Assembly: GCA_050084515.1 (NCBI GenBank)
Contig: CM114271.1
Coordinates: forward strand, 29,636,001-29,700,000
Source: Blasia pusilla
Taxonomy: Eukaryota
Direction: 5' to 3'
Length of the DNA stretch: 64,000 nt
The notes beneath the pieces were generated by a model. It was not told the origin of the DNA. It did not search any database and worked only from the letters and a program-made list of their open reading frames with translations. Below are positions 8,237 to 58,549 of this stretch, one piece after another (position 1 is the stretch's first letter; each line of letters opens with the position of its first letter). The position numbers were made by a program, and so were the translations under genes.

Positions 8237-8743
8237 GCGGAGAGAGTTGTGTAGACGGTGAAGAGGGATTTACGCAAGTATGGCTTGCAGAGAGGTCACC
8301 TAGGAGATTGGGACCTCCACTTGCCATGGTTAGGGATGAGATACAGGTTCAACAGGCAGGCATCCTTAGCGTCTTTTTCACCGTACCTGCTACTTTATGG
8401 CCGAGATCCAGATTTACCTACGGCCATTCGTCGAGATGCCGGTGAGGTGCTGCACCTTGATGACCCAGATGTATGGGTGCGATTATGTTCTCAGAGGGCT
8501 GAGTTGTTTCAAAGAGTGATGCCCATGGCGTTCGAAAACTTGGCGATTGCGCAGCATCGAGATACGTTGAGGTATGCGACTATTCGGGGTGGTGGTTATC
8601 GACCAACTATCCGGAGGTTTCATCAGAGAGATTATGTCTATTTGCAGCTGATGGCACCGACGACGTTGGATGTGAGTGCAGGGCGCACTATCTTGAGAGT
8701 GCGTGACATTTTGGCATCCATTGTTCTCTTGCTGGAGGGACGC
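8237..8743 (+). pseudogene. Family A integrase C-terminal half; continues at 27196 after nested element C
   Basis: AERVV*TVKRDLRKYGLQRG...FSPYLLLYGRDP...LLLEGR; joined across the ACGC duplication it reads LEGR/DGMVWKDHVRNCAPCH. Confidence 0.9.
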
Positions 8744-10019: not shown

Positions 10020-10021
10020 AA

Positions 10022-10039
10022 TGGTGCTTCCATTGAGAG
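10022..10039 (+). promoter_or_regulatory. Element C tRNA primer-binding site, probably tRNA-Thr(AGU)
   Basis: TGGTGCTTCCATTGAGAG 2 nt after the LTR; its complement CTCTCAATGGAAGCACCA resembles the plant tRNA-Thr(AGU) 3' end as I recall it (not searched). Confidence 0.7.
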
Positions 10040-10086
10040 CTCTTTGAGGCGGTAGATTGTGTTTGCAAGTTGGAGTCTTATCAAGA

Positions 10087-12382
10087 TGACTACTTTTGGT
10101 AGTACTTCATCAATGGAAAGTGAGGGAGCTAAGGATCTTCTCTGAAATTTGACAACATTGTTGAGTCAACAAGGAGGAGTTCACATAGGAGAGCAAAGAT
10201 CAACAAGGGCTCTTCAAGCGATTGTTAAGAAGGTGGGGAGATTTGATGGGAGGAACATCACCAATTATGTTCGAGAGTACGTATGTGAGATGGAGGTAAA
10301 TCGTGTACCCGAAGGTGATATGGTGTCAAGTTTTGAGTTAGCTGTAATACCAGAGATTCGTAATCAAGTGAAGAAATTGAGAGCAGAAAATCCGATCTTG
10401 TGGGAGGAGTATGAGCAGTTGCTGAAAGGAGAATTCTTCAATGATGATGTGGATGGGGTGACTAAGAGGAGTTTTTTAGAATGGATAGAGCAACGTCCAG
10501 GGAAGGGAATGACTCCAAATAAATTATTGCGTGAGTTTGAGAAGCGGTTTTTTCAACTTTCTTCTTCCGAAAGAGCAACTCTAGACTTGAGGAAAACTGA
10601 GTTATTCCTTGAGGCGGCTGACGAGAATTTGGAGGACAAGCTTTTCATAATGTTGGCGGACAAGACCGAAGAAGGAGGTGTCAACACTAATTGGAAGAAA
10701 GTGGAAGAAGCTGTTGCTATCCTTACAAAGCAAAATCGAAGTAGAGGTAGAACCGCACTATTCAAGTCGGAGGTATTAATTTCAAATCCATTGCCTAAGC
10801 CCGTTTCAACAAAACTTTAAGATTCCGCTATAGATGAGTTGGTGAAAGGTTTGAGAGAATTGAGAGTAGAAATGGCAGAGCTTAAACTTGACAGGAATCC
10901 TAGTGTTGGTGCTCCTTTGACAAGTAGGAACTTTGTGAGAAGATGTATATGGTGTGATAGTGTTGAGCATCAGCGTCGAGAATGTGAGGAGTTTTCAAAA
11001 GCTCTTAGGAATGGAATAGTAAACTTCAAAGATGGGAAGATTCATTCAACGTAGAATGGTATGCCGTTAAATACCAACTTTGGTAGAGGAGGAATGAAAG
11101 GCTTAGTGAGAAGTCAAGTAGGAGTTGCCACTACGGTATTAGATTCTGATACCTTTGCAGTAAAAATAGAAGTGCCTATTGTATCTGTAGCTAAAAGTGA
11201 ATCATTACAATTTCCTCGAAAAGTGATGATACGAGGGGCAGAGACTATCCATCATCTAATTGGATGGGATGATCCAGTGGAAGTTGGGTGTGTTAAAGCA
11301 TACCTAGCACAAGAGAAACATATGAGATGGCAAGATGCTAGTGTGGAGGAGAAGAGGAGACGCGACAATGATGGTGCTGATCTCGAGGAAGCTGCAAGAA
11401 GAGCAAGGACCGTAAGAAGGAAAGGGAAACCAGAGGCGCAACATCAAGAGAAGAAGGGCCTTCTACATCTGAATCTATGATGGATTCTCAAATGAAAGAA
11501 GATGGAATGAAGGAGAAAGAATTGAGGTCTTCCCATAAGACCAAGGGTAAGACTCCTACATACAAGTTGCAGTTTGATATAGAGACAAGCACGAATTTAA
11601 AGGAGATTCTTGAGGAGAGGATTTTGGATGCGAAAATAGAGTTTTCTTTGAGGGAAGTCTTGGGCATAGCCAAACGTGACTTTCATGAGTTGATCATAGA
11701 TGTGATCAAAAGGAAAAGATAGATGACTGCAGATATGGTGATGGTGAGGGCATTGGATACTGACATCACAGAAGAAGAAGATGAACAGCTTTGCCAAGTT
11801 TTTGGACAAAAGCTTGACTTACAAGAAGAAGAGGCGAGAGTAAGAGAAGCCTTGACAGAACAAGGTGAAGAAAGACACAATGGTGGACACTATTCTCGGT
11901 CATATTGGGCGCGTGCAACGACGGAGGCTAGAGTTCGACTCGGCTCTCTCCAAGAGTCAGTTCTGGCTCTCGTTGATCATGGTTCAGAGATCAACATCAT
12001 GTCGCGAAGTGTATACGACAAAGGGATGTGGCCAATTGATACAGGGCATGGATGGGTACTACGACCGGCTAACAACCAAAAAGGTGAACTCTACGATGCT
12101 TGTCCATCCGTCAAAACCCGTATCGGAGATGTGTTAATTGAGCAAAATTTCTTTGTTCAGAATGGAGTTGCTTATCCTTTGATTCTTGGGCAACCTTACA
12201 TCACAGCATCTAGAATGGAGACCAAAGTCATGGATGATGGGTCTCATTATGCCCGTATTAGAAGTCAGGATGGAATAAGATCAGTTCAATTCCTCATTGT
12301 ACGAGTAGGTCATGAAAGGAATAGAGAGAAGTTGAGAGATGGTCCTATGAAGGTAGAGAAAGAGTTTCGGATTTTTAGTTAG
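10087..12382 (+). pseudogene. Element C gag with CCHC knuckle and aspartic protease (disrupted)
   Basis: Gag-like GRFDGRNITNYVREY; knuckle CIWCDSVEHQRREC; protease ALVDHGSEINIMS...LILGQPY; several in-frame stops. Confidence 0.88.
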
Positions 12383-12458
12383 CACTCTTGTAGAGCGGGA
12401 ATATGGGGGTGCAGAGAAAAGAAAGAGTCTTCCGCTAGCATAAGGGGAAGAATCATAT

Positions 12459-15400
12459 ATGTTTAGGTGTGGGTTTTCTCAATGTTTTTCTTCGTGGTCT
12501 AGTAGATTCCAAATGATGAAAGAAATGAATGAAAGGAAAAGCCGTTTTATGAAAAAAAAAGAGGGTTTGTTAAAATGTGAGGGTGTTCTATTAGATGAAG
12601 AGTTCATTAGTGGGATGTATGAAGAAGAGGGTTTTGGAGATAGTCTTGAAGAGGTGTTTTCCCAGATGAGCACCAACCCGCTGGATACAAGTGTGATTGC
12701 AATTCACTCGCGTGAGTTGCATGAAGAGATATCAAGGTTCATGGAAGGAGAACATGAATATGAATCTACGGAGAAGGAAGCGGATGGGCACGTGTTTGAG
12801 TCTGACGAACATCCCATGGAGGCACAAGTGCACACAAAATACAAGAAAGTGGCCCAGAAGGTGAAACCAATGGCTACTCAACTACCAGAGGGTTGTGGGA
12901 GACAAGTAGAACGTGCATCAATAGAGCCAAGTCTGCAGGATGTCAAGATGATAGGACACAAGTTCACTGAAGAGACGCTAGATCATCTGCAAATCGGAGG
13001 GGCTGAGTTTCTCACAGAAATTGAAAGAAAAAGCTTTCTGGAGATGTTAAGGAGACATGGTAAGGCTTTCTCTTTTACTACACAAGAAATTGGTTGTGTA
13101 GACACGAGTGTGGTGGCACCGATGGTAATTTTCACAGTTCCACATGTGCCTTGGGATTTGAAACCCATACCAGTACCACGAGCTATGATTCCCAAGCTGA
13201 TTGAGTTATTGAAGAAGAAGATGCAGATGGGTATCTTAGAGCCATCTATGGGGCCTTACTCGAGTTGATGGTTCACTGTGCCGAAGAAATCAGGAGCTCT
13301 CCGATTCATTCAAGATATGCAATCGGCAAATAAGGTAACCATTCGAAATATGGGAGCGGGGCCTAGAATAGATGAAGTCGCAGAAGCTTTTGAAGCCCGT
13401 GCTATCTATTCTATAGGAGATTTGCACTCGGGATATGATCAATTCCAATTAGCTACAGAGAGTAGAGATATTACCACTATACGCACTCCACTTGGGCTTG
13501 TAAGAATGTGCACATTACCTCAAGGAGCAACAAATTCTGTCGCTCACATGCAGAGTGCAATGAATAAAATCTTGAGAGAGTTGATTCCTGAGAAGACCAT
13601 TGCTTTTGTAGATTATATTCCTATAAAGGGATGTGCAATAGAAGATAGGATTGAGACGGTTGTGAAAGATGGGTGTAGAAAGTTTGTGTCTGATCATATT
13701 CGTGATGTGGATATGATCCTAACAATACTAGAAGAGGTCAATCTTACTCTTTCCGGAGAAAAGTGTAGCTTTGGAGTTCCTCACATTGTGGTAGTGGGTC
13801 ATCTTTGTGGAGAGTTTGGCCGAAAACCAAATCCAGCAAAAGTTGATGTCATCGGAAAGATACGAGAATGCAAAAATGTCACCGAAGTGAGAAGGTTTTT
13901 AGGAGCTTGTGTGTTTTATCAGGTATGGATTCCTCATTTTGGCCACATATCTGATCCTTTGTATGAGCTGTTGAGAAAGAAGAAGAAGTTCACTTGGGAG
14001 AAGAAGCAAAGAGCGGCAATGATGCAGTTGAAGGAGGCATTGAAGTCGCCACCGGTTCTACGACAAATGAGCTACGAATGCGAAAGACCTATTATCATCA
14101 CAGTGGACACTAGCCCTATTGCTATCGGGGCGGTTAAAGGATGACGCGGAAGGAAGAAGATTTGCAACAAGGTTTGGAGCTCGTACACTCACGGAACGAT
14201 AGAGGAGATACCCTCAGGTAAAGAGGGAGCTTTGGGGAGTTGTAACTGCAATGAAAGCTGAGAAGGAGTATCTTATGGGAGCCTATGTATTGCTTGAGGT
14301 TGATTTTCTACCTCTGTTGGGTATGATTGCGAATTGTACGACTCCAGATATAGCCATGCTATGTTGGATAGCCTACATTAGGTCCTTGAATCCACAATTG
14401 AAGCATATAGCTGGGAAAGAGAACTCAGTAGCTGACATGTTGTCTAGAGCTAGATTTAGTCAAGAAGAAGATATGGAGGCAAGTGAGATAGATGAGGATG
14501 ATGCATATGTGTGGCAAGTGTTATCTCAAGAACGAGGTGGCATAGAGGATGTTCTAGCCTTCAAAGAGAATTTGTATGAGGGCAGGTTAAAAGAAATTGG
14601 GCGTTATTTAAGCACTCTGCAAAGAGATGGAGGGTGGACAAAAAAGTTCTTCAAGGAGATTCGGCATAAGGCGTATGGCTATCTACTACAAGATGGGTAT
14701 CTTTGGAAAAGGCCAAAGAGGAAAGATGGAATGCCCTTGAGGGTGGTGGATGACAATAGGACAAAAATGCAAGTGCTCAAAGAATTCCACAATTCTTTAT
14801 GGGCAGGACATAGAGGTACTTGGGCAACTTTCACCAAGATAAAAGAGAGGTATTGGTGGAAAGGCCTATATAAGGATGTTGAGAGATATGTTGGGTCATG
14901 TGTTGAATGTCAGTTTCAATAAAAAATCAGGGTGAGAGATGGACTTAAACCCACATATCCTTTGTCTATTCATCATCAATGGGTTAAAGATCTAGTTGCT
15001 ATGCCACTAGGTCTTTGGGGAATGCGTTACGTGGTCCTAGCACGAGAAGAGTTGTCCAACTTTGTAGAAGGGAGGGCTTTACGGGCTAAACCTATATGTC
15101 GTTTTATTCTAGAGGATATTGTTGCTCGATATGGGAGTGTCGGGAGAATCCGTGTAGATAGAGGTGAGTTGAATGCAGAGGAAGCACGAGAGTTCTTCAA
15201 GAGATATAGAGTCCAGTTGAGATTAACAACCTCCATGAATCCGGAGGCAAACGACAAGAGCGAAAGGGGACATCCGCCAATCATTCAAGCATTGGTAAAG
15301 GCGTGTGGAGATCGTTATGCTGACTAGCCTAGATTTCTTCCATTTGCTTTATGGGCAGATAGAACCACTCATGGCACCGTTACAGGGTTCATGCCTACAG

Positions 15401-15480
15401 AGTTGATGACAGGTCAAAAGTCGATAATTCCAGCAAAAGGAGATATACCCACTTGGATGGGATTGCCGTGGGAAGACGGG
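12459..15480 (+). pseudogene. Element C pol: RT, RNase H, integrase HHCC and core (disrupted)
   Basis: DLHSGYDQF, LPQGATNS, FVDYIPIKG (DD motif mutated), TVDTSPIAIG, NSVADMLSR, H..LWAGH...CVECQ, KSERGH. Confidence 0.92.
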
Positions 15481-16061
15481 TGTCGTGCAAATCCACATCA
15501 TCATACAACATACATCTCTGGCATACCATACTCACATACATACATAACATAGACGAGAGCATCCACAAACACAAGTGTACCACAATTGAAATCCATGAAA
15601 GACCTACTATCATAAAACACGTATAGAATCACATACAATCGAGCCAAACCCACTCCACGATGGGAGAATCTAGGTCGAAGCTTGCGGGAAACACCATAGC
15701 CAAGAGCTCTACTCACTACCAAGGCTAACTCCCAACGCAACAGGCTCAACTCAAAGAACTAACTGTTCTTTGAATGCACTCCACCTTATATCCTCCAACC
15801 TAAGAGCGGGCCCTACTGGAAAAGTCACCCTCAACTGAGTAACCCCCAACCCTATGTATGAAATCGCATCTCTACCTAGACACTACGGCCCTACATAAGG
15901 TATGGCCTCTACTAGCACACTATACTCTACGACATAATCCGTATGGTCATGAGAGCTGTCGTGCGAATCCACATCGTCATACAACATACATCGCTGACAT
16001 ACCTTACTCACATACATACATAACATAGAGGAGAGCATCCATAAACACAAGTGTACCACAA
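15481..16061 (-). repeat. Element B 3' terminus: B1 (16061-15957), GC, A2 (15954-15587), B2 (15585-15481)
   Basis: A 105-bp segment occurs twice (15481-15585, 15957-16061) around a 368-bp segment that matches 25068-25435. Confidence 0.92.
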
Positions 16062-16074
16062 CTCGCCCCCCTAA
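16062..16074 (-). promoter_or_regulatory. Element B polypurine tract
   Basis: TTAGGGGGGCGAG on the minus strand, immediately before B1. Confidence 0.8.
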
Positions 16075-16235
16075 CTGGCGGTTAGGTCCCTCTAACTCCC
16101 AGGTAGCCCTATACATCTACTACATGCTATACATTTTCTTGGGTGAACGAATCAGAAGGCCGGGTGCTAGGTTGCCCCATTGTTAGTCGCACATCTGTAA
16201 TCCATATCATGCAAAGATCAAGTCATCTACCTCTC

Positions 16236-17490
16236 CTAAGTACATCGAGGACAAACCCACCTTCCAGTAGGAACAACATCCATATGTGGAGTCAAACACA
16301 TCATGTGCGAACCCCTAGAACACCGATCACACACCAACATACGGGCTGCGTTACCAGCAGACCCACACAACATGCACCTCAAGCTAGCACGTATCATGAC
16401 TAAGCTTGGGTCAACAGTACCATCCACATTTGGAAGATGACATGGAGCACAATTACACACTCGGTCCTTCCAAACAACTCCATCACGACCCTCCAACATG
16501 AGAACTCCAGAAGCTAACACCTCACGCACTCGTAAAATAGTGCGGCCTGCCATCACATCCAACGTTGTTGGTGCAATCTGCTGCATATAGACATAGTCCC
16601 CCACATGGAACCTACGAATCAATGGTTGATAACCTCCACCCTGAATGGTTGCATACCGCAACGTATCCCTGTGTTGAGCAATGGCAAGATTCTCAAAGGC
16701 TGTTGGCATAACTCTCTGAAAGAGCTCTCCCCGCTGAGAACACATTCTCATCCACATCTCTGGGTCATCAAGGTTCACCACCTCACTAGACTCCCGATGA
16801 ATTGCTGCTGGCAAGTTTGGATCTCGGCCGTATAATATAAAATAAGGTGAGAAGGAAGCCAAGGATGCTTTGCGACTGAACCTATATCCCATGGCTAACC
16901 ATGGCAACTGAATATCCCGGTCTCAAGATGCCCCTTCTGTAGGCCATACTTGCGCAATGCCCTCTTCACCGTCTGAACCACACGCTCAGCCAAACCATCC
17001 GCCTCTGGATGATCTCGAGACGTGGTCCGATGATCAATCAACGCCTTATCACACAAGACCTGAAACTCACCCTGAAACTCTGTAAGCTGGTCGGTAAGCA
17101 CTTCAGCTGGTGCACCAAAATGACTAAGCACTCTATCAAGAAACGCATACGCCGTTCCCTCACTTGCCTTGTCAGGTAATGCCACCAACTCAATCCACTT
17201 GGAGAAGTGCTCCACCATCACCAACACATATTGATGATGTCGTACAGTCAACGATAACGGTCCCGCAAAGTCCACACTCCAATGATAACCCAACCCCATA
17301 ATAGGCAGGGGTGTAACTGTAGTGTAGGGGCATTGAATGATGCCCTCACCCGGTCACAAACTATACAACATGACACCAACTGTTGCACCTGAGTATGCAT
17401 GTCACGCCACCAATACTGACCAAGGAGTAAGCTATACGTACGCTTTACCCCAAAATATCCCAACTCCTCATGGGCATGTCGCACAATGCG
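16236..17490 (-). pseudogene. Element B DDE integrase with C-terminal PHD finger (frameshifted)
   Basis: HAHEELGYFG...CIVCDR; WSVDFAGP, LTDQ, AERVVQT; PHD CMLC...CDRC...H..C...WVCPRC at ~16240-16375. Confidence 0.93.
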
Positions 17491-17496
17491 CTCTCT

Positions 17497-19389
17497 CTAA
17501 GCCAAATGCGGCACTACTCGTACTCTACCATCCTCCCACACACGGAGAATATGTGATCCCTCCAATCGATACCTCTTAGCAAGTTGAAGAACACGGTCTC
17601 GCTCCTTGGCACTCACTATGCCTAGCACCCTACTGGTCCGTAGGAACTCCAACACCAACGCATCATCATGAATATCACGCTGATCCGTACCACCATCTCC
17701 AACCTTAGGATCTAAAGGTTGGCCATCTACCCTCTGACTAGAGTAAGATATCATGTGGTCATCCATACTAGAGTCCACCCCTAACCAACACAAAAAGGCG
17801 GATGCATGCCAACTTGGCACCATCTCCTCATCAACCTCGCCATGCCATCTAGCCCCAATTGTATCCTTTTGGCTAGTACATGGGTTCCTACTCAACCCAT
17901 CAGCATCAAGGTTGGCAACTCCAGGTCTATGTACCACTTGGAAGTCATACTCCTGTAAGATAAGAGCCCACCGTGCAAGCTTCCATGTAAGCTTGTGAGA
18001 CTCCATCAACCACTTGAGCGGCTGGTGATCAATAACAAGGGTAAACTATGTACCAAACAAGTAACACCTAAAGTGTGCCACAGCCCACACTACTGCCAAG
18101 CACTCTCCCTCATATGAACTATAGCGCGACTCCGCTGCATTATTCGAACAACTTGCATAGGCCACCACAAACTCCATGTGCTCATCATCATGTTGTGTCA
18201 ACACCGCTCCAAGTCCCAACCTACTCCAATCAGTGTGTAACTGAAATGGGCGCCCTCTGATAGGTCTCCTTAAGATAGGCGGCGCCACCAACTGGGCCTT
18301 AAGCTCCACAAAAGCTCTCTCATGATCATCTCCCCAGTGCCACTCTTGATCTGATTTCAGAAATTGGTTCAAAGGCTTTGCCATAGCACTAAATCCCTTC
18401 ACATACCTCCGATAGTAGTTCGCCAATCCCATGAATGCTCGAACTCTACTCACATCTACCGGACGCGGAATAAGTGCAATAGCCTCCACCTTTGCTTGCT
18501 GAACTCCCAAACCACCTAGATAGATCACATGACCCAAGTACTCAACATCCTCATGGAAGAACTTACACTTTCCTGGATGCAAACGTAGACCATGAGCTTT
18601 CAACCGCTCAAACATCATCTGCAAATGTATTTGATGCTCCTCCACCATGTTACTGAATACCAAGATATCATCAATGTAACATCGAACAAAATCCAACCAT
18701 GCTAGGATCCTGTCCATCACTCTCTGAAACTCGGCAGGTGCATTCTTCAACCCAAAGGGTAAGAATTTCCACTGGTACAAACAATCCTTGCCATGAGAGT
18801 TGACACCCCAAAATGCTGTCTTGGCCTTGTCACTCTCCCGAATCGGTAATTGATGGTATCCTGCCCGAAGATCCAAAATACTGAAAATCTTTGCCTGTCC
18901 CACCACATCAAAGATCTCCTTAGGTGTAGGCATGGCATACCTATCGGCCTTGGTTTGACGATTGATAGGACGGTAATCTCCACACATCTGCCTATCCGTG
19001 TAGTTGCCATTCATATCCTTTTTAGCAGGCATGACAGTGGCTGATGCATACTCTCCATGCGACAACTCCACTAATCGAGCCTCCAAAAGGTCCAACGTCC
19101 TACTCTAAATCAGGTCCCTCTCCATATCACTATATCGGTAGGGATGACGGAAGATTGGCGTATCACTAGCCAAATCAATCCGTATATCGGGTCCAACCAG
19201 AGCACCCAACTCCTTCATGCTAAAGGCAAAATAACTCCTATAAGCACGTAGGAACTGTCTCAAGCGTCGTTTCTTCACCTCCCGTAAGCTTGGGCCCAAG
19301 TAATGGCTCCCAAGTCTCCTCCACTGGCACACTAGAGGGAGAGGACGATGCCATTTGCTGCTACGCAAACCCCTCACAAGATGGTACAC
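17497..19389 (-). pseudogene. Element B reverse transcriptase, RNase H and linker
   Basis: DLRAGYHQ, LPFGLKNAP, YIDDILVFS, LHTDWS, YEGECLAVVWAV, NLDADGLSR. Confidence 0.95.
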
Positions 19390-19574
19390 CCTTAGCTACA
19401 CCATCATCTGAGCAACCAACTCCACATGCCCAACCATTACATCCCATTTACTCCAAGGATGCAAAATACTACTCTCCTTGCCCCCAGCCCATGCCTCTAC
19501 CGTCTTGGTAGCCATCGAGCTCATTACAAGGGGTGGAAGATCCACAAACGTAGTGCGGAGTCGTATTTTGGCCA

Positions 19575-20535
19575 TACCAAGACTCAAAATCCAAGTCAAA
19601 CAATTCAAGTCCATGGCCTGACCCAACACATGACGTCGTGAAGCCTCAGAAATGGAAGCAACCGTTGTCACACTAGTAGCAAATCCAATCACACGCTCTC
19701 TCTCATCAACGTTAGGCTCCACCAACTATCGTACATGAGAATCCCATACAAGCCCGGGACCACCTTCCCTGTAGGCATGTGACCAGGGAAAACTCACAAA
19801 TGTGGGTAGTGCCATCCTAGGCTAGCCCACACGGTTCACCACTGCCATGGGTGACCGATCAATAACCCTCACCACTTGAGAAAGTCGCCCAGTATCCAAG
19901 ATACTATCCACTGTAAGGCAAGGATCCTGCTGCACTGCATCATATGCTCGACGTAGAACCTCCCTAGGCAACAAGTTTGTCCACCATAAGCGTGGACGAT
20001 GTGCACGCGAGCCAACTCGCGCTGCATCCAACAACACCGCTGGTCCAATCCAAGACCGCACCTCATGAACACTCGCCATCATCCGGGTCCGAGTGTCACC
20101 CAACAATGGAACATTCTCCAGAATGTAAGCGGGAGCACGTGCCTGATGAACCTGAAGATGTCGTAACACCCGTAACATCTCCCAAAAAAATCGAGACCTA
20201 GGGTCGTGTAATCCCTCACCACGACCAGCACGTGTATGACCCTGACATGGCCATCCAGCAATCACCAATTCCACAGGACCAACCTTCTCAAAGTCATGCG
20301 CCCCCAACAATACAATGTGTGACGGCAAAGCACGCTGGTACCCACGAATAGCGGATGGCGGCAACAACTCAGGATATCTCCGCATCAACTGACCAATATG
20401 TCGGGATGAGACTCTCTGGGTCGTCTCATCTCGCTCCACATACATGTATCTCCGCACAGGAATACCGGCCTGCAACACTCCAGCCAAACCAGTGCTTATC
20501 CCACCAAAGAGATCTAACACACAAATGCCCTCCGG
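19575..20535 (-). pseudogene. DNMT3-like C5 cytosine DNA methyltransferase domain inside the polyprotein, between protease and RT
   Basis: Motif I VLDLFGGISTG, IV IAGWPCQG, VI ILENV, VIII DAARVGSRAHRPRLWWTNL, IX ERERVIGF, X RRHVLGQAMDL; two in-frame TAG stops. Confidence 0.92.
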
Positions 20536-20829
20536 CGGATACTGCCATACAATGGGTGTAGTATCCGAAGGGGATAACCCAACTGGACCAGAAGTAGGAG
20601 TCCGCCGTGGGGCCTCCTCTTCCTCGTGAGGTATATGACCTCACACCAAGCCTCTGCACTAGGCGTCGCCTCTGCCGTAATGCACCGCCTGAACTCCAAA
20701 GTGGCACATCCAACGATGAGGATGCCATTGCTGTAAAAATAGGGACCTCCTCTACCTCCTCATGCACAGGAGAATCCATAGCAGAAACATTATCCGCCAA
20801 AAAGTCTCCTGACCAAGTAACTACTCCAC

Positions 20830-21298
20830 TAAAACCAGCCACAAATGCTAACACTGTTGGGGAAGACCCTCTTGGTTGAGCCCCATAAATAAATCTCACA
20901 GGAACTTGGCTCATACGTCCATCCCCGGACTGCCAACCAGGTCTATAAGACGTTGTTTCAGTCCAGTAATCCATCTGAAAACCCATCAGGTACAATACTG
21001 CTCCTCCAACTAGTACATCATACGACTCGGCTAATGTGACTATCGCAGATACTCCCAACCGGGAGCTATCAATCACATGATCTGGTCTCAACTGTACAGA
21101 AAACTTCTCCCGTGTCATGAATTGAGACCTACCATTGGCTCCTCCAAGTGATGTTTGAATTTGGAATGGGCAAGGCTCAAGCTCTGACCTCCGAATACCC
21201 AAACCAATACATGCCGCCTTTCCCAACATCAAAGGTTGGGCACCAGAGTCTAACAAGACTCTATATGGTCTATACACCTGTCCTGTAGGACTCACCAA
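20830..21298 (-). pseudogene. Element B aspartic protease
   Basis: RVLLDSGAQPLMLG...YDVLVGG. Confidence 0.85.
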
Positions 21299-23434
21299 TC
21301 AGAATATCCCACTCCGATTGTCCAACATACATACACCAGGTGTAAGCCTCTCACGATCAATGGGTGGCCGGGTTGGTAATGCATCCATCTTCGCCGCTGC
21401 TGCCTCCCAAGTAGCACTGGTACTCAATGCTACACCTAATATAGAGGGTCCCTCCACCGCAACACCCTCATCCACCTCACCACGTGCAGCAGTAACATCC
21501 CCATGTTCACACAACGTGGCTGCTAGCTGAAATACAAGAGCTAAGTCAACCCCTAAAGCCATCAGCTCCGTTGCCGAAAATAATGGGGATCCCAACACTG
21601 GAGTTGCCATCCGCAATACTACACTAGATGCTGCATCCGTGTCTACTACACGCGATGTAGATGCCTCAATCCCCATTGTCGGCTCAATAGGCTGCGTAGG
21701 AACCATGGATGGAGTCCTAAGCACCTCAGACAACAAGAATGACTGGGGAAGCCTAGCCTGCCTCCTAGCCTCACCTCTCTGTGGATCCAACTCCATAGTA
21801 GCACCCCGTGGCTCTGACGCTCGAGTGGCTCCTCTCGTAACTGCAGTCGATGCCTCAACCTGTGCTGCACTCGCCATATAAGAGAGATCATCCCCTCCAT
21901 AAGAGGTGGAAGCCCCTGCTCCCGAACTCTATGTTGGATACCAGCCATAGTAGCCAACCTCTGCTCCAACTGCTCAATCCTGGTAGCCATAGTAGCCAAC
22001 TTCTGCTCCAATTTCTCAATCCTGGCAGCCATAGCTGACTCTGTCGTAGTGGTAGGGGTAGCCACTGTAGGCTCTCTAACCACTGGTCCACCTCTACCAC
22101 CCCTATCACCTCTAGCACCTCGGCCTCTTGGAGCTACTCCACCACGGCCGCAGCCTGATCTCAACTCTGGATGAAGATCAAAGCAACGCTCTCGAGGATG
22201 ACCTGGTCTCCCATAATGATCACACTAAGTTGGGGCCGACTGAGGCCCATCCTCCAAAGTCCGTCTCCCATCCTCTTGGGGACAAAACTTCCTAACATGA
22301 TCACCTCCACATGTCCAACATGCTTGTCCTTGCTGCGGGGCAGCAAATGAAGGCAATGGTCTCTACGCAAGTGTCCCTCTAGGACCTGATTGAGGTCGTG
22401 TGTACCCCCCACGACTCCCACTACTACTACCACCACCACTACTACGAGACTGTGAGGTGGGTTGCTGAACACGAGAAGTAGTAGTTGTATCCCTACCGAA
22501 TGCGGATGTCACCACTCTCTCCTTCACCATGTTAAGCTCAATCTTCTCAGATAGAGCAAACACATGGGTCAATGTGGATGAATCATCACTCAGAAGAGTA
22601 GCATCACGTACCCTGCGGCGCAACTCTCTGTCCAAGATCCCATATATCAAAACTGGAGTGTCTGAGCCTCAATCACACCCTGGGTGACTGAAATCAAGCG
22701 TCGCATACGAGTGTATGCCTCACGAAGACTCTCACCAGTCTTTCGCTCAAATTCTTGAAGACTCCTCAACTTCTCTATCTTCACTCCCTGATAGTTTTTC
22801 TTCAACCTCTTGAAGAACTCTGCAACCACGCTAAACGATGGTTGGGCACTAGTACACTAGTACCCCCACTGGTACCTCCACTGGTACTCCCACTCCGGCT
22901 CGTACTCGTACCACTCAACGTCGGGCTGGCTGGCATAGTAGGAGCACTACTACCAGTACCACCATGGGTGATAGACACATAGCCTGGTGACCAATATTGT
23001 CTCCATGCCTCAATCTCAGCAACATGGTCCTTCCTAAACTCATGGTAATCATCCATGGGTGGTCCCTCCAAGTGCTGAAACAACCCCTTCCAAGCCAAGA
23101 AGGGTGTAAACAACGTGGCGTTCCGCAACATCTGCATATCACACCACGTATCAAACTCCTGCATGAAGTCCTCCAACTCAATGGTGCCCACTGCACCCGA
23201 GTATCGTCGTGGGCCCTTCATGGCCCCATATATCCCATCCATGTTTCAAATCAATGGAGCTGCAACACTTGATAACAACGTAGAAGACTCGATGTTTGGA
23301 ACGCCCTCGTCCTCCTCTTCATCAACCGTCGGAAGTGGAAAAGGTAGCCGATACCTAAATCCACTCCGTGTGAAACCACCACTGTCCACACCACAGTCCC
23401 CAACCAGACCACCCGACAGCTCCATGATGACCAA
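21299..23434 (-). pseudogene. Element B gag, with two zinc knuckles, an RGG stretch and a coiled-coil repeat (fragmented)
   Basis: PRRYSG...LEDFMQEFDTWC; RKTGESLREAYTRM; knuckles CWTCGGDHVRKFC and CDHYGRPGHPRERC at ~22180-22325. Confidence 0.8.
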
Positions 23435-24202
23435 CGCCGATGCTGCACCATCACCACCAAATTATCACCACTAAGTAACCAAGTGACGTCGATGTCGCTA
23501 TACTATTCTAGCTCTACTAGCTATGGGTGTAGGCAACCTAACCTGTCATCACCACAAGAAGCCTCCCACGGTCTACTGGTCATCACTCTAGCCTCTATCG
23601 GTAGCACACAGGAGTAACACTACTCTGGAAATCAGCGTCAACCCTAACAATGGGCGCGCAAGCAAGAAGCAACGATGGAGGGGATCCAAACACAGGAAGT
23701 CCAACGACAACCCTCCAATCGCAAATGGAAATCAAGGTAACACAATCCACAAACATGGCGCCCCCTGAATCCACAAAACCCACCACAAAATTCTAACGCA
23801 ATAGCTACTGTGCCGCGGGTCGATGACGTGCTAGTCGAACTCGCAGCACCTGAAAATATCACCTGCATGGAGAGGCTACAGCGTACTACGCGCTAGAGGT
23901 CCATCAACCAAAACCCTGAGATGAGATGCATAAAGCGCCTAATACCTCTCCGAATAGCACCAAATGAGCTACACCAGTGTGTACATTGGCATAGTTAAGA
24001 ACTCAGCAATTAAGCGTCTTCCAGGCAGAATAGCCCAAAGATGGGTGACCACTTATGCAACACTCAAATCACAAATCCTGCAAAAACTACCTCATGCCCA
24101 AGCAAGCAAGCTTGCTTGCTTGCCCCTTGCTCCTTACTCTGCCTCTCATGCCCACTCGCCCCGAGCTACCACGAGTTGCCTCGAAGCCTCAAAACGCCGA
24201 GA

Positions 24203-24342
24203 AATGCCCTTATCGCCCCGTTCGGCATGCTTCGTTATGGAGAGAGGCCCAACCAAGGCGCCCCCAAATGCTCGAGACATGCCCCTATTGCCCCGTTCGC
24301 CACGCTTCGCTATGGAGAGAGGCCCAACCAAGGTTCCCCCAA
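24203..24342. repeat. Two ~75-bp tandem copies in the element B leader
   Basis: atgccc.tat.gccccgttcg.ca.gcttcg.tatggagagaggcccaaccaagg occurs twice. Confidence 0.8.
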
Positions 24343-25053
24343 CGGGATAGGCATCTCCAACAATGAACGAGTCACCAACCAACCAGCCCCTCCGATCTGC
24401 TGTCACCACCACCTTGAGCTATGTTTCGATCACAATTAAAAATCAGCAAAATTGAATCTGTTTTGACTAGAATTTAATTGACCACCATAGCTATGTTTCC
24501 ACAAAAAATCAGCTATAATTGAGCTCTGTACTCCGAGCTAAAAATCAAACAAACTTGCTGTCCATACACCTCAAGAATCACAGCGCTTTCGCCCAGTTTC
24601 ATGAACGCGGAAAGCCGCAACGCTCCACACACTCGAGCGGATATCTTCACATGAGATCACAATACAAGTAGCAATAGGAACCTCTCACCCGATCTGGATG
24701 AACTTCAACAGAACTTCCGCACTCCAAGCTCTCCACATCAGAAAACCGTCGAACACGAACCAAAATCTTCAATCCTTGATAACTTCCAACTCCCTTGACA
24801 AAATCCGGCGATCTAAAGCACGTTGGAAAGCTCTTAGCAAGGTGCTTCTTTCCCAACCAAACCACGCACCGTATTCACACCGCCGCCGCTCCTTGTAGCA
24901 GTCTCCCTTGTGCTACCACTTGGGGTCGCACCGCCTCCCGCGTAGGATCCGTCACTACAACATAGGCCACAAGCCACGAACATCCACGGCTGAGTACACA
25001 ATCAGCCCTAACTAGATCCTACTGATCCACAATCAAAGCTACCATCGATCTAG

Positions 25054-25068
25054 GTCAGTTCTTTGAGT
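25054..25068 (-). promoter_or_regulatory. Putative self-priming primer-binding site, element B
   Basis: Minus-strand ACTCAAAGAACTGAC abuts A1 and pairs (one G:U) with GTTAGTTCTTTGAGT at 25244-25230, just downstream of ATATAA (25272-25267). Confidence 0.75.
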
Positions 25069-25435
25069 GAAATCCGTGAAAGACCTAATATCATAAAACA
25101 CGTATAGAATCACATACAATCGAGCCAAACCCACTCCACGATGGGAGAATCTAGGTCGAAGCTTGCGGGAAACACCATAGCCAAGAGCTCTACTCACTAC
25201 CAAGGCTAACTCCCAACGCAACAGACTCAACTCAAAGAACTAACTGTTCTTTGAGTGCACTCCACCTTATATCCTCCAACCTAAGAGCGGGCCCTATTGG
25301 AAAAGTCACCCTCAACTGAGTAACCCCCAACCCTATGTATGAAATCGCATCTCTACCTAGACACTGCGGCCCTACATAAGTTATGGCCTCTACTAGCACA
25401 CTATACTCTACGACATAATCCGTATGGTCATAACA
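25068..25435 (-). repeat. Element B 5' terminal repeat, segment A1 only (368 bp)
   Basis: Matches 15587-15954; no B segment adjacent. Confidence 0.92.
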
Positions 25436-25439
25436 CGGG

Positions 25440-25841
25440 CTCGATAGGAAAGAGCTCCTAGCACTCCGAATGCAGCAGCTAGAGCGGCGGGAAGAAGATA
25501 TTGCAGAAGCATTAGTCAAAATGAAGGAAGCAAGGTTGAAAAATAAGGAGCGCTTTGACAAAACGCATCGACTTCGGAAGGAGCCTATAAGAGAAGGAGA
25601 TTGAGTCTTGGTGCACGACAATAGCCTCGACAACCAGCATAGTATAATTAAGAAGTTTGCACGTTGTTGGTTTGGTCCATACGTTGTAATCTTTGCTTTT
25701 GACAATGCCACTTATAAATTACGTGAACTAGATGGCACAATTCTCAAGTTGCCAATTGCAGGAAAAAGGGTCAAGATTTTCCGTAGACGTGAGGGATTTC
25801 TTGATTTCGATTCAATCTGTCTAGAGGCACAACAAAAATAA
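25440..25841 (+). pseudogene. Element C integrase C-terminus (GPY/F region; no chromodomain seen)
   Basis: LDRKELLALRMQQLERREE...WFGPYVVIFAFDNATYKLRELDG. Confidence 0.85.
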
Positions 25842-25915
25842 GTTTGAGTAAAATACCAAGAAGTCTCGATGTTTTTGGCACATATCGGAGGATGTGCAGG
25901 TTTGGAGGGGGTGAA

Positions 25916-27191
25916 TGTCGTATAGTAAAATCAGCTAGTGTGTAAACTCCTTCCTCGTTAAGTGTTAGATAGAGTTTTATAAGTATTAAATAAATTAGCT
26001 TAGGAAAAGGAAATCCCCATGTTTAAACCTCTTTATGATGCCTCTTTTATGCGGGCCCAACTTTAGAAAAGAGGTAATAAATAAAAGATGACTTTATAAA
26101 AGTAAAGTAGTGAGGTTTGTGCTTTAATGAAAATCAAAATTAGGCTTGGTTGGTGGCTAGGTTAGTTGGGGTAATTTGGAAAATATCAAGTGGATAAAAG
26201 AGGATATTTTGGAAGAGATAAGAGGAAATCTACTTGTGTCAAAATATGATTGGCTAAGCCTTGAGAGGAAGCCATATGGCACAAGATAAGATTAGCTCTA
26301 TTTCGTACTCTTGTGGCTCTCTTGTGAGTATATAAAGAGGAGGGACCTTCAAGGGTTCATCACCTTCTATTCCATATCTTGAGTCTTTCGTGTCACTCTT
26401 GAATGTATGACTTTGGGATTGCTTGCTCTTCCAATGAGAGTGGATCATCCCTCTTGGGAGAGTAACTTGACCATGGTCTATTCTTTGAGAGGTTTCTAGA
26501 GTGCGGTGTGTGTGTGGAGATGAGAGGTTTGTCACCTTAGAGGAGTTTAGTCATACTAAAATAGTGAATTTTTTGGCTTGTTACTTCCCCAATGAGAGTG
26601 GATTAGCTCTCTTGGGAGAATAACTCCGCCAGAACCCATTCTTGAGGAGAGTAGAGAATGTCTATCAAGCATGGATAGGGGTGGAGCACAAGTTGTGCCC
26701 GACTTTCCTTTCCTTAATCCATACCATGTCAAGATACTCTTTGTAGATAGGCACTGGTTCACTTGCTATTTAGTTTATCACTTTGGGGAGGCGTTCATAA
26801 CCAGGTCATTCAATCTCCAACTGCGGTGACCCTTCCTATCGTCACATATGGAAGGACATGGGATTATACTTTGTATGTCCTTATATAGAAATCCATGGAC
26901 GTCAATAGGCCTGCTCAAGTAGGGTTTAATACTAGTTGTGCTATCTTCCTCGTATACAAGTTTAAAATACTCTATAGGGATTTTATAGTTAGGAATTTCG
27001 GGGCCCGATGTTACGAAGAAGTGATCGCCTCGGCACTTCCATTTGTGATACCTGTCGTGAGAGAATGGAGAGTATACATAATAACTTTATATTGAAAAAG
27101 GAGATCTTCTCAGAGAATTCATCTTGCATCGACCGCGTCTGCTGCAGCTAGAAGGCCTGCCCTTACTCGAAGAAAGGCTCTCGACACGACA
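25916..27191 (+). repeat. Element C 3' LTR, preceded by PPT GGAGGGGGTGAA (25904-25915)
   Basis: Same length and termini as the 5' LTR. Confidence 0.95.
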
Positions 27192-27195
27192 ACGC

Positions 27196-27447
27196 GATGG
27201 TATGGTATGGAAGGATCATGTGCGTAATTGTGCGCCATGTCACCTTCCTAACATTGATGGTACATTAGATCCAAGCTTAGCAGTAGTTCCTGCAGGCTTG
27301 CGTTTTATGTTGTGTGGTGCGGCCATGATGCTAGTCTATGATGGATGTTCGAGAGGTTGGCATATGGCATGTCTGACGCCACCTCTCACTAGGGTTCTTT
27401 GGAGCGATGGATGTGTCCCAAATTTACATAGAGCAGATACTAGGTAG
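27196..27447 (+). pseudogene. Family A integrase tail with degenerate PHD finger
   Basis: DGMVWKDHVRNCAPCHLP...MLCG...DGCSRGWHMACLTPPL. Confidence 0.85.
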
Positions 27448-27617
27448 GTTTCGATTCTGACTTTTTCTGTGACATGGATGACAGGAAGGCCACTAACGAT
27501 GGGGCCACATGAGCACCGGGCTTTATGCTTTTAGCGTTATAGAGATGTATGTCGTGGTCGGTAGGGATGGATCGCTATCTGGAGTTAGAGGGACCTAATC
27601 ATCAGCTAGAGGGGCGA

Positions 27618-28379
27618 TTGGAGATATTTTGGTACTTCTCGCCTCTGTGTATGGATGCCATGAGTTAGCATGGGATCGTGTGTGTTTGTGTGTGTGTTCG
27701 ATGATAACGATGTATGTTGTGTAGCGATGTGTATACGCACGACAGCTGTCACGAGTGTTAGGATAGATCGATGGGATCTAGCAGAGCGTCTTCATGAGTA
27801 GTGGAGGACAGGCCGAGGAGGTCGAGAATGGCCTGTTGAGGCCCTGGGAAACCCGAGAGAGCAGGTTTTGCCTTCGTTTTGGCTCATTTGGAGCCATATT
27901 GAGGAGCTTACTATTTTACCATTTTGAGTATATGATTGGCTTTCTATTTTTGGTAAGTGGCCCTTGACCTCCTATATCAGGTCAAGAGCCAAGGAGGTGA
28001 CTTGGGAGAATAGGTTACCATGGAGAGAGCTTGGGAGAGGAGAGGGGTATACATGAAGGAGAGAGAGCTTGAGAGCTCATTCTCTCTTTGTTGAACGTCT
28101 TGGCATAAGGTGGCGGAGCTATGGTCCCTTGCCTTGTGAGTGTAACCCAAGCCTCTCATTAGGAGAGCGGGTTTGGTTTGACATGAGAGAGAGTGCACAT
28201 CTTTGAGAGCTATGGTGTGAGATGGTGTAGAGAGAGATTGGATCTTACTTTATTGGAGATATTTTGGTAATTCTCGCCTCTATGTATGGATGCCATGAGT
28301 TAGCATGGGATCGTGTGTGTTTGTGTGTGTGTTCGATGACAACGATGTATGTTGTGTAGCGATGTGTATGCGCACAACA
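27618..28379 (+). repeat. Family A 3' terminus: PPT (27608-27617), B1 (27618-27744), GC, A2 (27747-28252), B2 (28253-28379)
   Basis: A ~127-bp segment occurs twice around a copy of 6517-7027; junction reads CACGACA-GC-TGTCACG. Confidence 0.92.
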
Positions 28380-29130
28380 CACGCGTTAGCCTATTTAGGC
28401 ATGTTGGCTATGGAGAGCTAGAGTGTGGAGACTTCGATGGCGAGGTCTAGTGGAGAGTCCTTGGATCCCGAGGCCAATGAGGAGACCGTAGGTGGCCGAG
28501 ATATTCATGATAATGGAGTAGTCTTGGAGTACCTTTGTACTAGTAGCGTTGCGAGCACCGTGGGTGCTAGAGAGCGGGATCGGATCCTACAGCGGGCCAG
28601 ACGGTTCCGTTGGGAGGGGACACATGTTTTGAGGGTTTGGAAGGATGGTAGAGTACACGAAGTGCCGCATCCTTTGCAGAGAGCACGAATAGTGTAGCAT
28701 GCCCACGAGGAGTTGGGTCACTTTGGGATGAAGCGGACGTACAGCTTGCTCGAGATTCAGTATTGGTGGCGAGGCATGCAGACTGACGTTCAGCAGTTTG
28801 TTGCTAGGTGCATGGTGTGTGATCGGGTCCGAGCATCGTTTAATGCTCCAACTCCACAGTTGCATCCATTACAGATCATCGGCTTAGGGTATAGATGGAG
28901 TTTGGATTTTGCAGGACCTTTGCCTTTGATAGAGCGTTATTGTCGTTATGTGTTGCTGATGGTCGAGCACTTCTCGAAGTGGATCGAGTTGGTTGCATTG
29001 CGTGACAAAGCGAGTGAGGGAGTAGCTTATGCCTTCCTTGACAGAGTACTGAGTCATTATGGCGTACCGGCTGAGGTGTTGACAGACCAGGATAGCGAGT
29101 TTCACGGTGAGTTCCAGGCCTTGTGTGATC
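28380..29130 (+). pseudogene. Fragment of a second family A copy (post-RNase H linker, integrase HHCC and core)
   Basis: GGRDIHDNGVVLEYL...HAHEELGHFG...CMVCDR...WSLDFAGP...LTDQ. Confidence 0.88.
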
Positions 29131-29524
29131 AAGAGCCAAGGAGGTGACTTGGGAGAATAGGTTACCATGAGGAGAGCTTGGGAGAGGAGAGGCATATACC
29201 TCAAGGAGAGAGAGCTTGAGAGCTCATTCTCTCTTTGTTGAACCTCATGGCATGAGGCGGCAGAGCTATGGTCCCTTGCCTTGTGAGTGTAACCCAAGCT
29301 TCTTATTAGGAGAGTGGGTTTGGTTTGACATGAGAGAAAGTGCACACCTTTGAGAGTTATGGTGTGAGATGGTGTAGAGAGATTGGATCTTACTTTATTG
29401 GAGATATTTTGGTAATTCTCGCCTCTGTGTATGGATGCCATGAATTAACATGGGATCGTGTGTATTTGTGTGTGTGTTCGGTGACAGCGATGTATATTGT
29501 GTAGCGATGTGTATGCGCACGACA
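29129..29524 (+). repeat. Outer family A 3' end: partial A plus B (29398-29524)
   Basis: Joins the integrase fragment at a TCAAG microhomology; ends CACGACA followed by the ATTA duplication. Confidence 0.88.
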
Positions 29525-32092
29525 ATTATGTTCCAACGTGAGAGCCAACCAGGATTCCCCAAACCCCTAAGGATCCCTACCATCTGACAACACAATATTC
29601 AAGGATATTGTTACTACTACCTATGTAAATTTATATTATTATTGGTGAATGCCTCTTCATTTGGAGATCACCATCCTTTGGACACAGATCTTTTTTACTC
29701 AACAAAAACCATTTTCATTTAAATTAATAAAATTTCAAATTCAATTATACATTTAAGACGGATAATTCAAAATTATATATTCGCTTGCACGCCACTAGTA
29801 TTCGCTATAACATAACTAATTCCTTCCATCCACAACCAATTAACCTTATAGTGTTACATCAACGTTAGGGGAGAGCCCGGGTTGTTTAATAACCTAGCCT
29901 GATGAATTTCAAAATTACCGTTTTGGTTTCTCTACTCCGGCCAAAAACAGACGAAATAGTAATAGTATCAGAATACCATAAACCGAAGAAATATGTAGGG
30001 TCTTCTTTTGTATTAGTATCAAAATAGCTTACCGGAATGGGCAAACCTTCAAAATTTACCATCCTATTTTGTAACCGGAAAGGTACCGGTTACAAAATAG
30101 CCGGACCCTGTGTTACACTCATATACAGACTGATTACAGAGAATGCTTCCAGGTGGACGTATAAGTACGGTTATTAAGCCAGATTCTCTCCGTGCATGTT
30201 CGATTTCTCCTTTACGGATGCCCATCATCTTCGAGAAATGGGTTGTTCTCGGAATGGTCTCCAGGTGGCCAATGGGACTCGTGGGAAGTCTTAGTAGTAG
30301 TCATAGCTCTCTTGTTGTTGCTGATATTGCTGCTGTTGGTGAGTTTCATCGTTAGGGGGAATGCCCCTTCTTCCTTTTCTGGTCGTGTTTGGCCTTCAGG
30401 TTTTGATTGAGTCCCCTCTTTGTACTTCCTATGGGTCGTTTTTATCGAAGTGCATCTTTCTTCGTTCTCGGCGAGTCAGAACTCAGAAGTCAAGGGGAAC
30501 GAGCCATCCGGAATCCTTCCTGTGATTGGCGGCTGGTCATCGCTCTGCGAATCAAACAAAATAAACCAAAGGTCCTCCGCACGGAGCGCAGCCCTTGGGA
30601 CCTGTGCATGTACATATCAAGTCACAAGTCTGGACTCTGGGGCCTGGCCGCCTGGGCCTGTAATGCCGCTGCCCTGGCCATCGTTTTTTTCTCGTTTGGA
30701 GCCGGGACAAATTCTGGGTTATGGCAGAGATTCTGATACAGATGCTCACCGCCGAAGGCTGGCGTCTTGTCCGTTGGAGCGCCGTCGACGGGAATGGCGA
30801 GAGTACTCAGAGGCCCGTGTCATTCTCCTAGGGGTGCATAAATGCATTCCTGTCAGGTGCACAGACTCACACTTTCTGAGCTTCGGGCCTCTCGAGCCAA
30901 ACTGTACGAGGCGGATACGTTTCGAAAGCTCGTGGACCGACAGGCAGACAGACAGACATACAAACGTCTTCTTCACCTCCTCATCCAGCAGGTTACTCGG
31001 GATGTCAATGGGATGGTAAGGTCCCCCCCCCCTCCCCCACCTGAGGTTATGGCGACGTTGAGTGATGAAGGAACTGACCGCAAATCGGCGGTGGAGCGAG
31101 TCAGTGCATGATGTGGCCGCGATTCACCCATCTGTCCCGACCTCGAAGCGAGCCTACCTTGACTCAAAGGGCTCTCAATCCTTGCGCAAGGATTCAAAGG
31201 AGGAAGTTACGCTGCAGATCCAGCAAATAGTTGCTTCAAAGCTACTTAGTCCAGTAGATCCGGGGACCAAATGGGAACCACAAAATGTCACTCGATCAGA
31301 AACATGAGTCGCTGTGATATCAAATTGTACAATTATTTTTTACTCGAGTAGAAAATACATGCAACTGATTGAAGACAACAACCTCAGGAGAATTTACTAC
31401 ATTATTTCCACCCTCGACCTTCGGGCTTTGACCGCGAACACTGCCTACCGCTGAGAGTATTAATCAAAATACTAGAGTCGTAAATGTGTAAAGCAGGTAA
31501 TCTGCAGAAGCACTGGCATGGTAAGTTCGTCTATCGCTAGTTGAAAAAAAGCTCCGTCCTAATGGGCAAACGGTGTGATGAAGTTGCCAATTGAACATGG
31601 GACCTGGAAAATACACTAAATTCTCCAACTCAGATCCACTGGCAAGTACGAGAAATGAGAATGAAACGCTGAGCACGTTCTACGAGCTATCATGTCACAC
31701 GAAATCGTTCTTGGATCCACTGGGAAGTACAAGAAGTGAGGACGAAACTTTCAGTAACGTCACGCAGATCTTTGATAGATTTTCCTTGACGTCTGGGTTG
31801 CTAGCCTGGACTCGATTGCTCTCCTGTGTCCGAGTTCAGTCTGCCTACCAAAGGAAGACATCCTCATCAGGTCGCTAACTGTTTGAATCGCAGTAGACTA
31901 CGTCAAGCCACGCCGTCCGTTCTCGGACACCATTGGCATGTACCTGCAACATTGGTTCACGCGAATGTGTTAGCCACTCGGACGTCAGTGAGTTGGACCG
32001 TATCATGCATCGCCGCCTTCTGCGAGAGTAAGCAGGAATTCAAACCAATTCGGATTTTTCACACACGGCCTGCGGGAGTGAAGACTGAGGTA

Positions 32093-58520: not shown

Positions 58521-58549
58521 CTAAATTGGAAATTCAAATATACTCACAA

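Follow-up and report, generated by a model that had tools for sequence, protein, structure and literature searches.

The window analysed here is a stretch of 64,000 nucleotides from Blasia pusilla (NCBI GenBank assembly GCA_050084515.1, contig CM114271.1, positions 29,636,001 to 29,700,000 of the forward strand; coordinates below are those of the stretch). Its main subject is E1, a retrotransposon of Ty3/gypsy type with a DDE integrase that lies on the minus strand at 15481-25435 and carries split, unequal repeats at its two ends. By blastn of the window against itself and by repeat finding, the order of its parts was established as A(368)-internal-B(105)-gc-A-a-B. The sole repeat at the 5' end is A1 (25068-25435, 368 bp, beginning TGTT), and the stretch between A1 and the internal B copy spans about 9 kb (16062-25067), within which the internal region proper (16100-25056) has frames interrupted by stops and shifts. 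The 3' end is composed of B1 (15957-16061, 105 bp, ending in ...GCACGACA), a GC spacer (15955-15956), the 3' A copy A2 (15587-15954), a single joint base A at 15586, and the terminal copy B2 (15481-15585), whose GACA end falls at 15481. A1 and A2 are 98.1% identical over 364 bp, and B1 and B2 are 93.3% identical over 105 bp. On the minus strand the outer ends read TGTT...GACA, and they are flanked by a target-site duplication (TSD) that reads CGGG on the plus strand (CCCG on the minus), at 25436-25439 on the 5' side and at 15477-15480 on the 3' side. A first-pass annotation of this DNA, made from the letters alone, had described an A-only 5' end, a B-gc-A-B 3' end, TG...CA outer ends and the CGGG duplication, and it was correct in all of these, coordinates included.

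The limits of the inserted unit are also visible in independent reads. Two raw RNA runs (X22 and X23) and two DNA-contig runs (X1 and X3), all with the same organism label, were mapped to 15300-25600. Reads joining 15475 to 25435, with 9959 bases skipped and 5 ambiguous letters at the joint, number 147 in X22 and 154 in X23; among the DNA contigs this empty-site joint was seen once in X3 and not in X1. The empty-site reads agree with the TG...CA ends and the duplication. At about nine positions in the flanks their letters depart from those of the window, so they stem from paralogues of the host element without E1. What was inserted is A...B exactly, with a 4-bp duplication, and B2 belongs to the element; the possibility that B2 is target DNA was excluded by these reads.

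With several elements nested in one another here, the B-A-B end might be suspected to come from a single rearrangement, a nested insertion or faulty assembly, and the first-pass annotation had itself named an assembly artefact as grounds for giving up its description. However, the A|B junction was found in 7 contigs of the independent DNA run X1, an empty site exists, and the layout is seen again in a second copy of the E1 family and, with repeats that do not align to A and B, in two other families, all described below. Explanations of this kind are scarcely credible on this evidence, and both the assembly artefact and the one-off rearrangement were dropped.

The coding order of E1 is gag, protease, C5 DNA methyltransferase (DNMT), reverse transcriptase (RT), RNase H, DDE integrase and PHD finger. 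Of the 84 open reading frames (ORFs) with 50 aa or more, 20 were scanned against Pfam; on the minus strand, the scans took in 12 of the 14 ORFs with 100 aa or more. All of the following features lie on the minus strand: gag with a CCHC knuckle (about 21646-23245, a weak Pfam gag match), the aspartic protease (20426-21298, from the Pfam scan), the DNMT (19822-20640; DNA_methylase, 1.9e-08), which sits between the protease and RT, RT and RNase H (17497-19104; RVT_1, 1.4e-32, and RT_RNaseH_2, 3.3e-29), the H2C2 zinc domain of the integrase (17248-17496; Integrase_H2C2, 2.7e-14), the rve core (16895-17353; rve, 3.1e-14) and a C-terminal PHD finger (16236-16922; PHD, 1.2e-10). This copy is degenerate, with many stops and frameshifts, and the D, D and E of the integrase core are still readable in its translation. 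The DNMT motifs DLFGG, PCQ and ENV can be read in the translation of 19822-20640. Pfam scans of the E1 ORFs gave no chromodomain match, the PHD finger being found instead. The best solved relatives are Ty3 proteins, namely the RT 4ol8 (4.2e-61) for RT and chain 7q5b of Gag-Pol for both RT and, separately, integrase; together with the rve and H2C2 matches they bear out the earlier assignment of the integrase to the DDE, Ty3/gypsy type.

In repeat layout E1 resembles tyrosine-recombinase elements, and it could in principle have been mobilised in trans by the tyrosine recombinase of a DIRS-like element, in which case its own DDE integrase would be irrelevant. Against this, the integrase has kept D, D and E, no tyrosine recombinase (Phage_integrase) match was obtained among the 20 scanned ORFs of the 84, and the 4-bp target duplications and TG...CA ends are as in the canonical neighbour E3. 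Mobilisation in trans is very improbable and was dropped.

Replication signals and the register of the repeats

Directly upstream of B1 on the minus strand lies a conserved polypurine tract (PPT) block (16062-16099) that ends in ...AGGGGGGCGAG. The conserved block is 37 nt long, reads GGAGTTAGAGGGACCTAA...GGGGGGCGAG with a G-rich polypurine end, and stops exactly where B starts; it occurs four times in the window, against 0.07 occurrences expected. RNA reads of other expressed families keep this block and then diverge into B'-like sequence at the start of B (loose read ends at 16063 and 16066), and further loose ends fall at 16099, at its other edge.

At the opposite end of the internal region, a predicted self-priming primer-binding site (PBS), ACTCAAAGAACT (25057-25068, minus strand), abuts A1 or overlaps its last base. 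It pairs without mismatch with the predicted RNA start and self-primer AGTTCTTTGAGT (25241-25230, minus strand), which lies within A1 and starts 30 nt past a TATAAGG motif (25271-25265, minus strand). The second repeat family of the window, family 2, has a matching arrangement in other letters, with a 16-nt primer 29 nt past a TATA-like motif; in its element E2 the self-primer is at 6854-6869 and the PBS at 7028-7043, both on the plus strand. The same kind of pair is present in two distant metagenome lineages (12 nt in the L007-type and 11 nt in the L002-type). Across these four families, a primer of 11-16 nt located 29-31 nt past a TATA-like motif is perfectly complementary to the site abutting A, and the letters covary. 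Such a pair was matched by only 4, 4, 4 and 7 of 5000 shuffled controls for E1, E2, L007-type and L002-type, respectively. No tRNA-type PBS was recognised after A1 on inspection by eye. The layout of E1 appears to be that of Tf1-type self-priming, with a predicted RNA 5' end within A1.

Because the PPT abuts B1 and the PBS abuts A1, the reverse-transcribed repeat should be B+A, and the reverse-transcribed form BA-internal-BA. The integrated copy starts with A and ends with B, and therefore the repeat defined by reverse transcription and the ends used by the integrase are out of register; the offset equals the length of B. The first-pass annotation had placed the PPT beside B1 and a primer site beside A1 and had proposed B+A as the replicated long terminal repeat (LTR). 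Both positions were borne out, the primer site proving to be a covarying self-priming site, and they support the proposed repeat.

It is possible to ask instead whether the replicated LTR is A alone or A+B, with the PPT or PBS misassigned and plus-strand priming located at the B|A joint, given that the TG start of A and the CA end of B resemble LTR ends. This is improbable, as the end of B carries no purine tract, in several expressed families conservation of the PPT block reaches exactly as far as the first letters of B, and A1 is not followed by B, so that minus-strand priming could not yield the terminal B.

The two junctions within the 3' end are informative in different ways. At the A|B joint the last U5 base is directly followed by the first bases after the PPT, so that the junction matches a U5 end joined to a U3 start exactly; the first-pass annotation had read it as a circle joint. 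Its variants in X1 contigs are ag and tag, versus aa in E1. The B|A junction of E1 (15951-15960, minus strand) reads GACA-GC-TCTC, its TG having mutated to TC. The corresponding junctions are GACA-GT-TGTC in the second copy of the E1 family (E1b), GACA-GC-TGTC in family 2 (element E5) and GATA-AC-TGTC in a third family (element E4); relative to GACA-NN-TGTC, E4 carries one change and E1 two. The start of A (TGTC or TGTT) and the end of B (CGACA) are kept from one family to the next, where the repeats cannot otherwise be aligned, and they agree with the ends of E3. In its letters, the B|A boundary equals both outer ends joined across 2 nt, in the conserved form ...CGACA-NN-TGTC.... A window-wide search with the 15-nt junction pattern at up to 3 mismatches gave 17 matches against 14.7 expected, which is no better than chance, and only matches with 0-1 mismatches at the predicted places were counted.

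The E1 family is transcribed in public RNA runs with the same organism label. With the RNA strand taken from the usual library convention, sense depth is 97-190 over the PPT, B1 and A2 and only 8.9 and 4.7 in the bin containing B2, a drop of more than 10-fold before B2. A speculation that B is a poly(A)-site element following only the 3' A was dropped.

Related copies and distant relatives

Within the window, the layout is shared by other copies and by families of unrelated repeat sequence. The second copy of the E1 family, E1b, lies on the minus strand at 62197-63999, is 94% identical to E1 and continues past the window edge. Its parts are B2 (62197-62301), A2 (62303-62670), a GT spacer, B1 (62673-62777) and the PPT block (62778-62815), all on the minus strand, and its 3' end therefore reads PPT-B-GT-A-a-B, as in E1 apart from the spacer. 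In comparisons of B1 with B2, two sites group by element and none by position.

The repeats of family 2, an A' of about 510 bp and a B' of 128 bp, do not align to A and B. The composite E2 (6517-29524, plus strand) has A' alone at its 5' end (A'1, 6517-7027) and A'-B' at its 3' end, where the 3' half of A' and B' occupy 29129-29524; other elements are nested within it. It is flanked by the TSD ATTA (6513-6516 and 29525-29528), and a paralogous empty site was found at about 6300-6330, some 200 bp upstream of its 5' end. The 3' end of another family-2 copy, E5 (27581-28379, plus strand), contains a PPT block, B'1 (27617-27744), GC, A'2 (27747-28251) and B'2 (28252-28379). The locus is a composite of 6517-8743 and 27193-29524: the 3' end at 28379 comes from a copy whose 5' part seems to have been lost through recombination with the outer element, and in the outer element a deletion fuses its integrase core (29133) to the middle of A'. 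A third related family is represented by the 3' end E4 (58494-58899, minus strand), with a PPT block, B'' (58863-58740), GATA-AC-TGTC and an A'' truncated at about 58500.

Three recurrences had been listed in the first-pass annotation, and all of them hold: 62197-62777 (B-A-B, 94% to E1), 27617-28379 (B'-A'-B', unrelated sequence) and 58494-58863 (B''-A'', truncated). Both 5' ends in the window consist of A only (2/2), all four PPT-bearing 3' ends read PPT-B-A, and the complete 3' ends read B-A-B in three of three cases. These counts rest on the window copies, as contigs and short reads do not bridge the 364-bp A.

The host element of E1 serves as an internal control. E3 (8744-27191, plus strand) is a canonical Ty3/gypsy element with 1276-bp LTRs (98%) and the TSD ACGC; E1 lies inside its integrase region, and E3 in turn lies inside the family-2 composite. 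In E3 the PPT and PBS adjoin the TGTCG...CGACA ends, the PBS beginning TGGTGC one base past the LTR. E3 is thus like E1 in the type of its ends and in its 4-bp duplication, but its register is canonical. RNA on the E3 strand, at a depth of about 90-110 over the E1 flanks, comes from copies without E1.

A profile built from four relatives with the order RT-RNaseH-DNMT-integrase-PHD retrieved 13 metagenome loci. L002 and the closely related L005, L006 and L007 carry CGACA-GC-TGTC in the non-coding DNA that separates pol from the following gag-side ORF, at a place upstream of the TATA motif, primer and PBS; we estimate that each such stretch would hold about 0.015 matches by chance. A canonical LTR element in a collapsed or circular assembly would hold no joined-ends site. 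The contigs of L002, L006 and L007 are 13.5-13.8 kb long, have first and last 122-141 bases alike and, besides pol (2014-2106 aa), contain gag-like and additional ORFs; it looks as if a large DNMT-PHD gypsy element had been assembled in collapsed or circular form. The loci L001, L003, L004 and L008-L010 end before or just past pol, and no genomic ends were present among the 13 loci. L011-L013 were set aside as merely weak integrase matches, L013 being an ordinary LTR pair.

A proposed joined intermediate and its relation to known systems

The anatomy and the offset register are most readily explained by a tandem-LTR intermediate, either a two-LTR circle or a concatemer, that is cut by the integrase, a reading to which we give a probability of roughly one half. 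Minus-strand synthesis would start by Tf1-like self-priming at the site adjoining A, and plus-strand synthesis at the PPT adjoining B. The repeat made by RT would be B+A, with U3 corresponding to B plus the first half of A and R-U5 to the second half of A. The linear cDNA, BA-internal-BA, would have its ends joined (A|B), yielding a two-LTR circle or, through template switching, a tandem-LTR concatemer. The integrase would ignore the ends of the RT-made repeat and use the conserved ...CGACA-NN-TGTC... B|A site inside it, cutting after CA on both strands of the PBS-proximal site. This cut would free A-internal-B-A-B with TG...CA ends, to be inserted with a 4-bp duplication. The joined intermediate, the integrase cut and the choice between the two B|A sites are what we infer. 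More tentatively, it may be proposed that a gypsy lineage spread across streptophyte algae and bryophytes obligatorily integrates from a tandem-LTR intermediate, its DDE integrase cutting a conserved CA-NN-TG inside the LTR.

Several observations weigh against integration from such an intermediate. The circle, the concatemer, the cDNA ends and the integrase cut are all inferred, none having been observed. A two-LTR circle holds two identical B|A sites, and therefore copies of the form A-B-A-internal-B are expected too; a search for this permutation had been proposed in the first-pass annotation, and the alternative was found at none of the two 5' ends and none of the four 3' ends in the window, which is a small sample. 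The two-LTR circle model alone gives no reason for the exclusive A-internal-B-A-B form. In E1, B1 and B2 differ at 7 of 105 positions versus 7 of 364 for A1 and A2 (Fisher p = 0.02), and this greater divergence of the B copies is unexpected if all four repeats were made in one cycle. The metagenome contigs, collapsed or circular in appearance, display the internal B|A site and not genomic ends. As for the transcript, its start is a prediction and the strand follows from library convention; in addition, 28 X22 molecules have their low-coordinate end at 15793 (adjacent depth 96), upstream of the predicted RNA start, for which the model has no explanation. This read end, which was not flagged in X23, would mean that an RNA stops shortly before the TATA motif of A2.

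Some of these points would be accommodated by replication in the manner of DIRS and PAT elements without regeneration of LTRs, in which a nearly full-length RNA (A1 to B2) would be copied, its ends restored by a template switch on the B1-A2 joint, and the A...B DNA inserted by the DDE integrase. The repeat order A1...B1-A2-B2 is that of the split direct repeats of PAT, Ngaro and TOC elements (DIRS order), as defined in PMC4157794, its invariable occurrence is likewise as in PAT/Ngaro, and the excess divergence between B1 and B2 would be in keeping with such a route. On the other hand, a conserved PPT at B1 and a covarying self-priming site at A1 are typical of LTR-type replication, sense RNA drops more than 10-fold before B2, and the A|B joint is a U5 end plus a U3 start. 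Furthermore, the element-specific bases are common to B1 and B2, none grouping by position. Replication of this kind is therefore unlikely, although it has the strongest claim after the joined intermediate. E1 also differs from PAT, Ngaro and TOC in having a DDE integrase, a 4-bp TSD, TG...CA ends, a PPT and a PBS, with no tyrosine recombinase in the scanned ORFs. DIRS elements are not known to make a target-site duplication, whereas E1 and E2 are flanked by 4-bp duplications.

Compared with canonical Ty3/gypsy elements such as E3 and yeast Ty3, E1 shares the RT-RNaseH-integrase order, has its best solved relatives in Ty3, and has ends of the TGTC...GACA type with a 4-bp TSD (4-6 bp being a feature of the group). 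The two equal, in-register LTRs of such elements are present in E3 and absent from E1 and E2, where the PPT and PBS are offset by the length of B. A Tf1-type self-priming layout has been predicted for bryophyte Tcn1 elements (PMC6317226), and E1 would resemble Tf1/sushi and Tcn1 chromoviruses in its predicted RNA 5' self-primer complementary to a site beside the 5' repeat. It differs from them in having a PHD finger in place of the chromodomain, and permuted repeats are unmentioned in the accessible part of PMC6317226.

For joined LTR ends as a substrate, foamy-virus integrase is a precedent, as it cuts the palindromic LTR-LTR junction of two-LTR circles to give processed linear DNA (PMC1180852). 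The likeness to E1 lies in a joined-ends CA-NN...TG junction that would serve as integrase substrate and give processed linear DNA. The same cleavage of the two-LTR circle junction has reportedly been claimed for HIV-1 integrase (PMC1905944). In contrast to the retroviral cut, which falls on the ligated joint between LTRs and gives back the usual linear DNA, the conserved site of E1-type elements lies inside each LTR, and the ligated A|B joint would remain in the provirus.

The first-pass annotation had stated that it knew of no description of such a layout for a gypsy element. This is contradicted by de Mendoza et al. 2018 (PMC5890265), where the legend of Fig. 4c describes KnitGypsy-Dnmt3 of Klebsormidium nitens as having DIRS-structured repeats and gypsy domains, the DIRS structure being defined as A-coding-B-A-B. 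The accessible part of that paper contains no analysis of PBS, PPT, junctions or TSD and no mechanism for KnitGypsy-Dnmt3. Beyond this legend, no further treatment of the layout, and none for Marchantia, was found in the literature searched, which excluded supplements, figures, subscription journals and Repbase. By its description, KnitGypsy-Dnmt3 shares with E1 a gypsy-type Pol with a Dnmt3-like C5 methyltransferase and A-coding-B-A-B repeats. The nearest named proteins of E1 are different: annotated proteins of Marchantia polymorpha share 71-77% identity with its DNMT ORF, which also matches Calypogeia and Sphagnum proteins, so that the closest named proteins come from liverworts and a moss; by these matches the host is most likely a liverwort or near kin of one. 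E1 adds a bryophyte to the bearers of a barely described layout, and its DNMT is placed differently, between protease and RT. P0036, P0037 and P0039, distant relatives at 33-35% identity, have the DNMT between RNase H and integrase, and the difference in position suggests two captures or a domain move. New here are the occurrence of the layout in a second family, the proof of the insertion from TSD and empty site, the register argument, the covarying self-priming site and the conserved internal CA-NN-TG site, which is present in distant relatives too.

If the joined intermediate is real, joined-LTR DNA would be revived as a substrate of a retroviral-type integrase for a natural element, and circles or end-joined cDNA would be genuine precursors of its integration. 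Split repeats of this order, regarded as typical of tyrosine-recombinase elements, would need no tyrosine recombinase. This would bear on the origin of DIRS-type elements from LTR elements, with E1-type elements as a living intermediate toward DIRS, PAT and Ngaro, which share the A-BAB layout. Standard LTR finders that expect two equal LTRs would misannotate or miss the lineage. The question is experimentally approachable, as the E1 family is transcribed and its nearest named relatives are in the tractable model Marchantia.

A few further features of the window were noted. More gypsy integrase and RT fragments, 72-75% identical to E1, lie on the minus strand at 36548-38917 and 59110-60166; no repeat ends for them were found in the window. 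Some RNA reads skip parts of E1, namely 16708-17714 (16 + 29 reads, with 8 other letters between in the 29 reads of X23), 16626-23156 (5 + 5) and 16012-16110 (10 + 7), and the skipped stretches may represent expressed deletion derivatives or spliced forms of the E1 family. Finally, E1 contains two copies of a 42-bp unit in its gag region (21943-22026) and two copies of a 75-bp tandem unit in its 5' leader (24187-24336), one unit of the latter being missing from some DNA contigs (joint 24190-24266).

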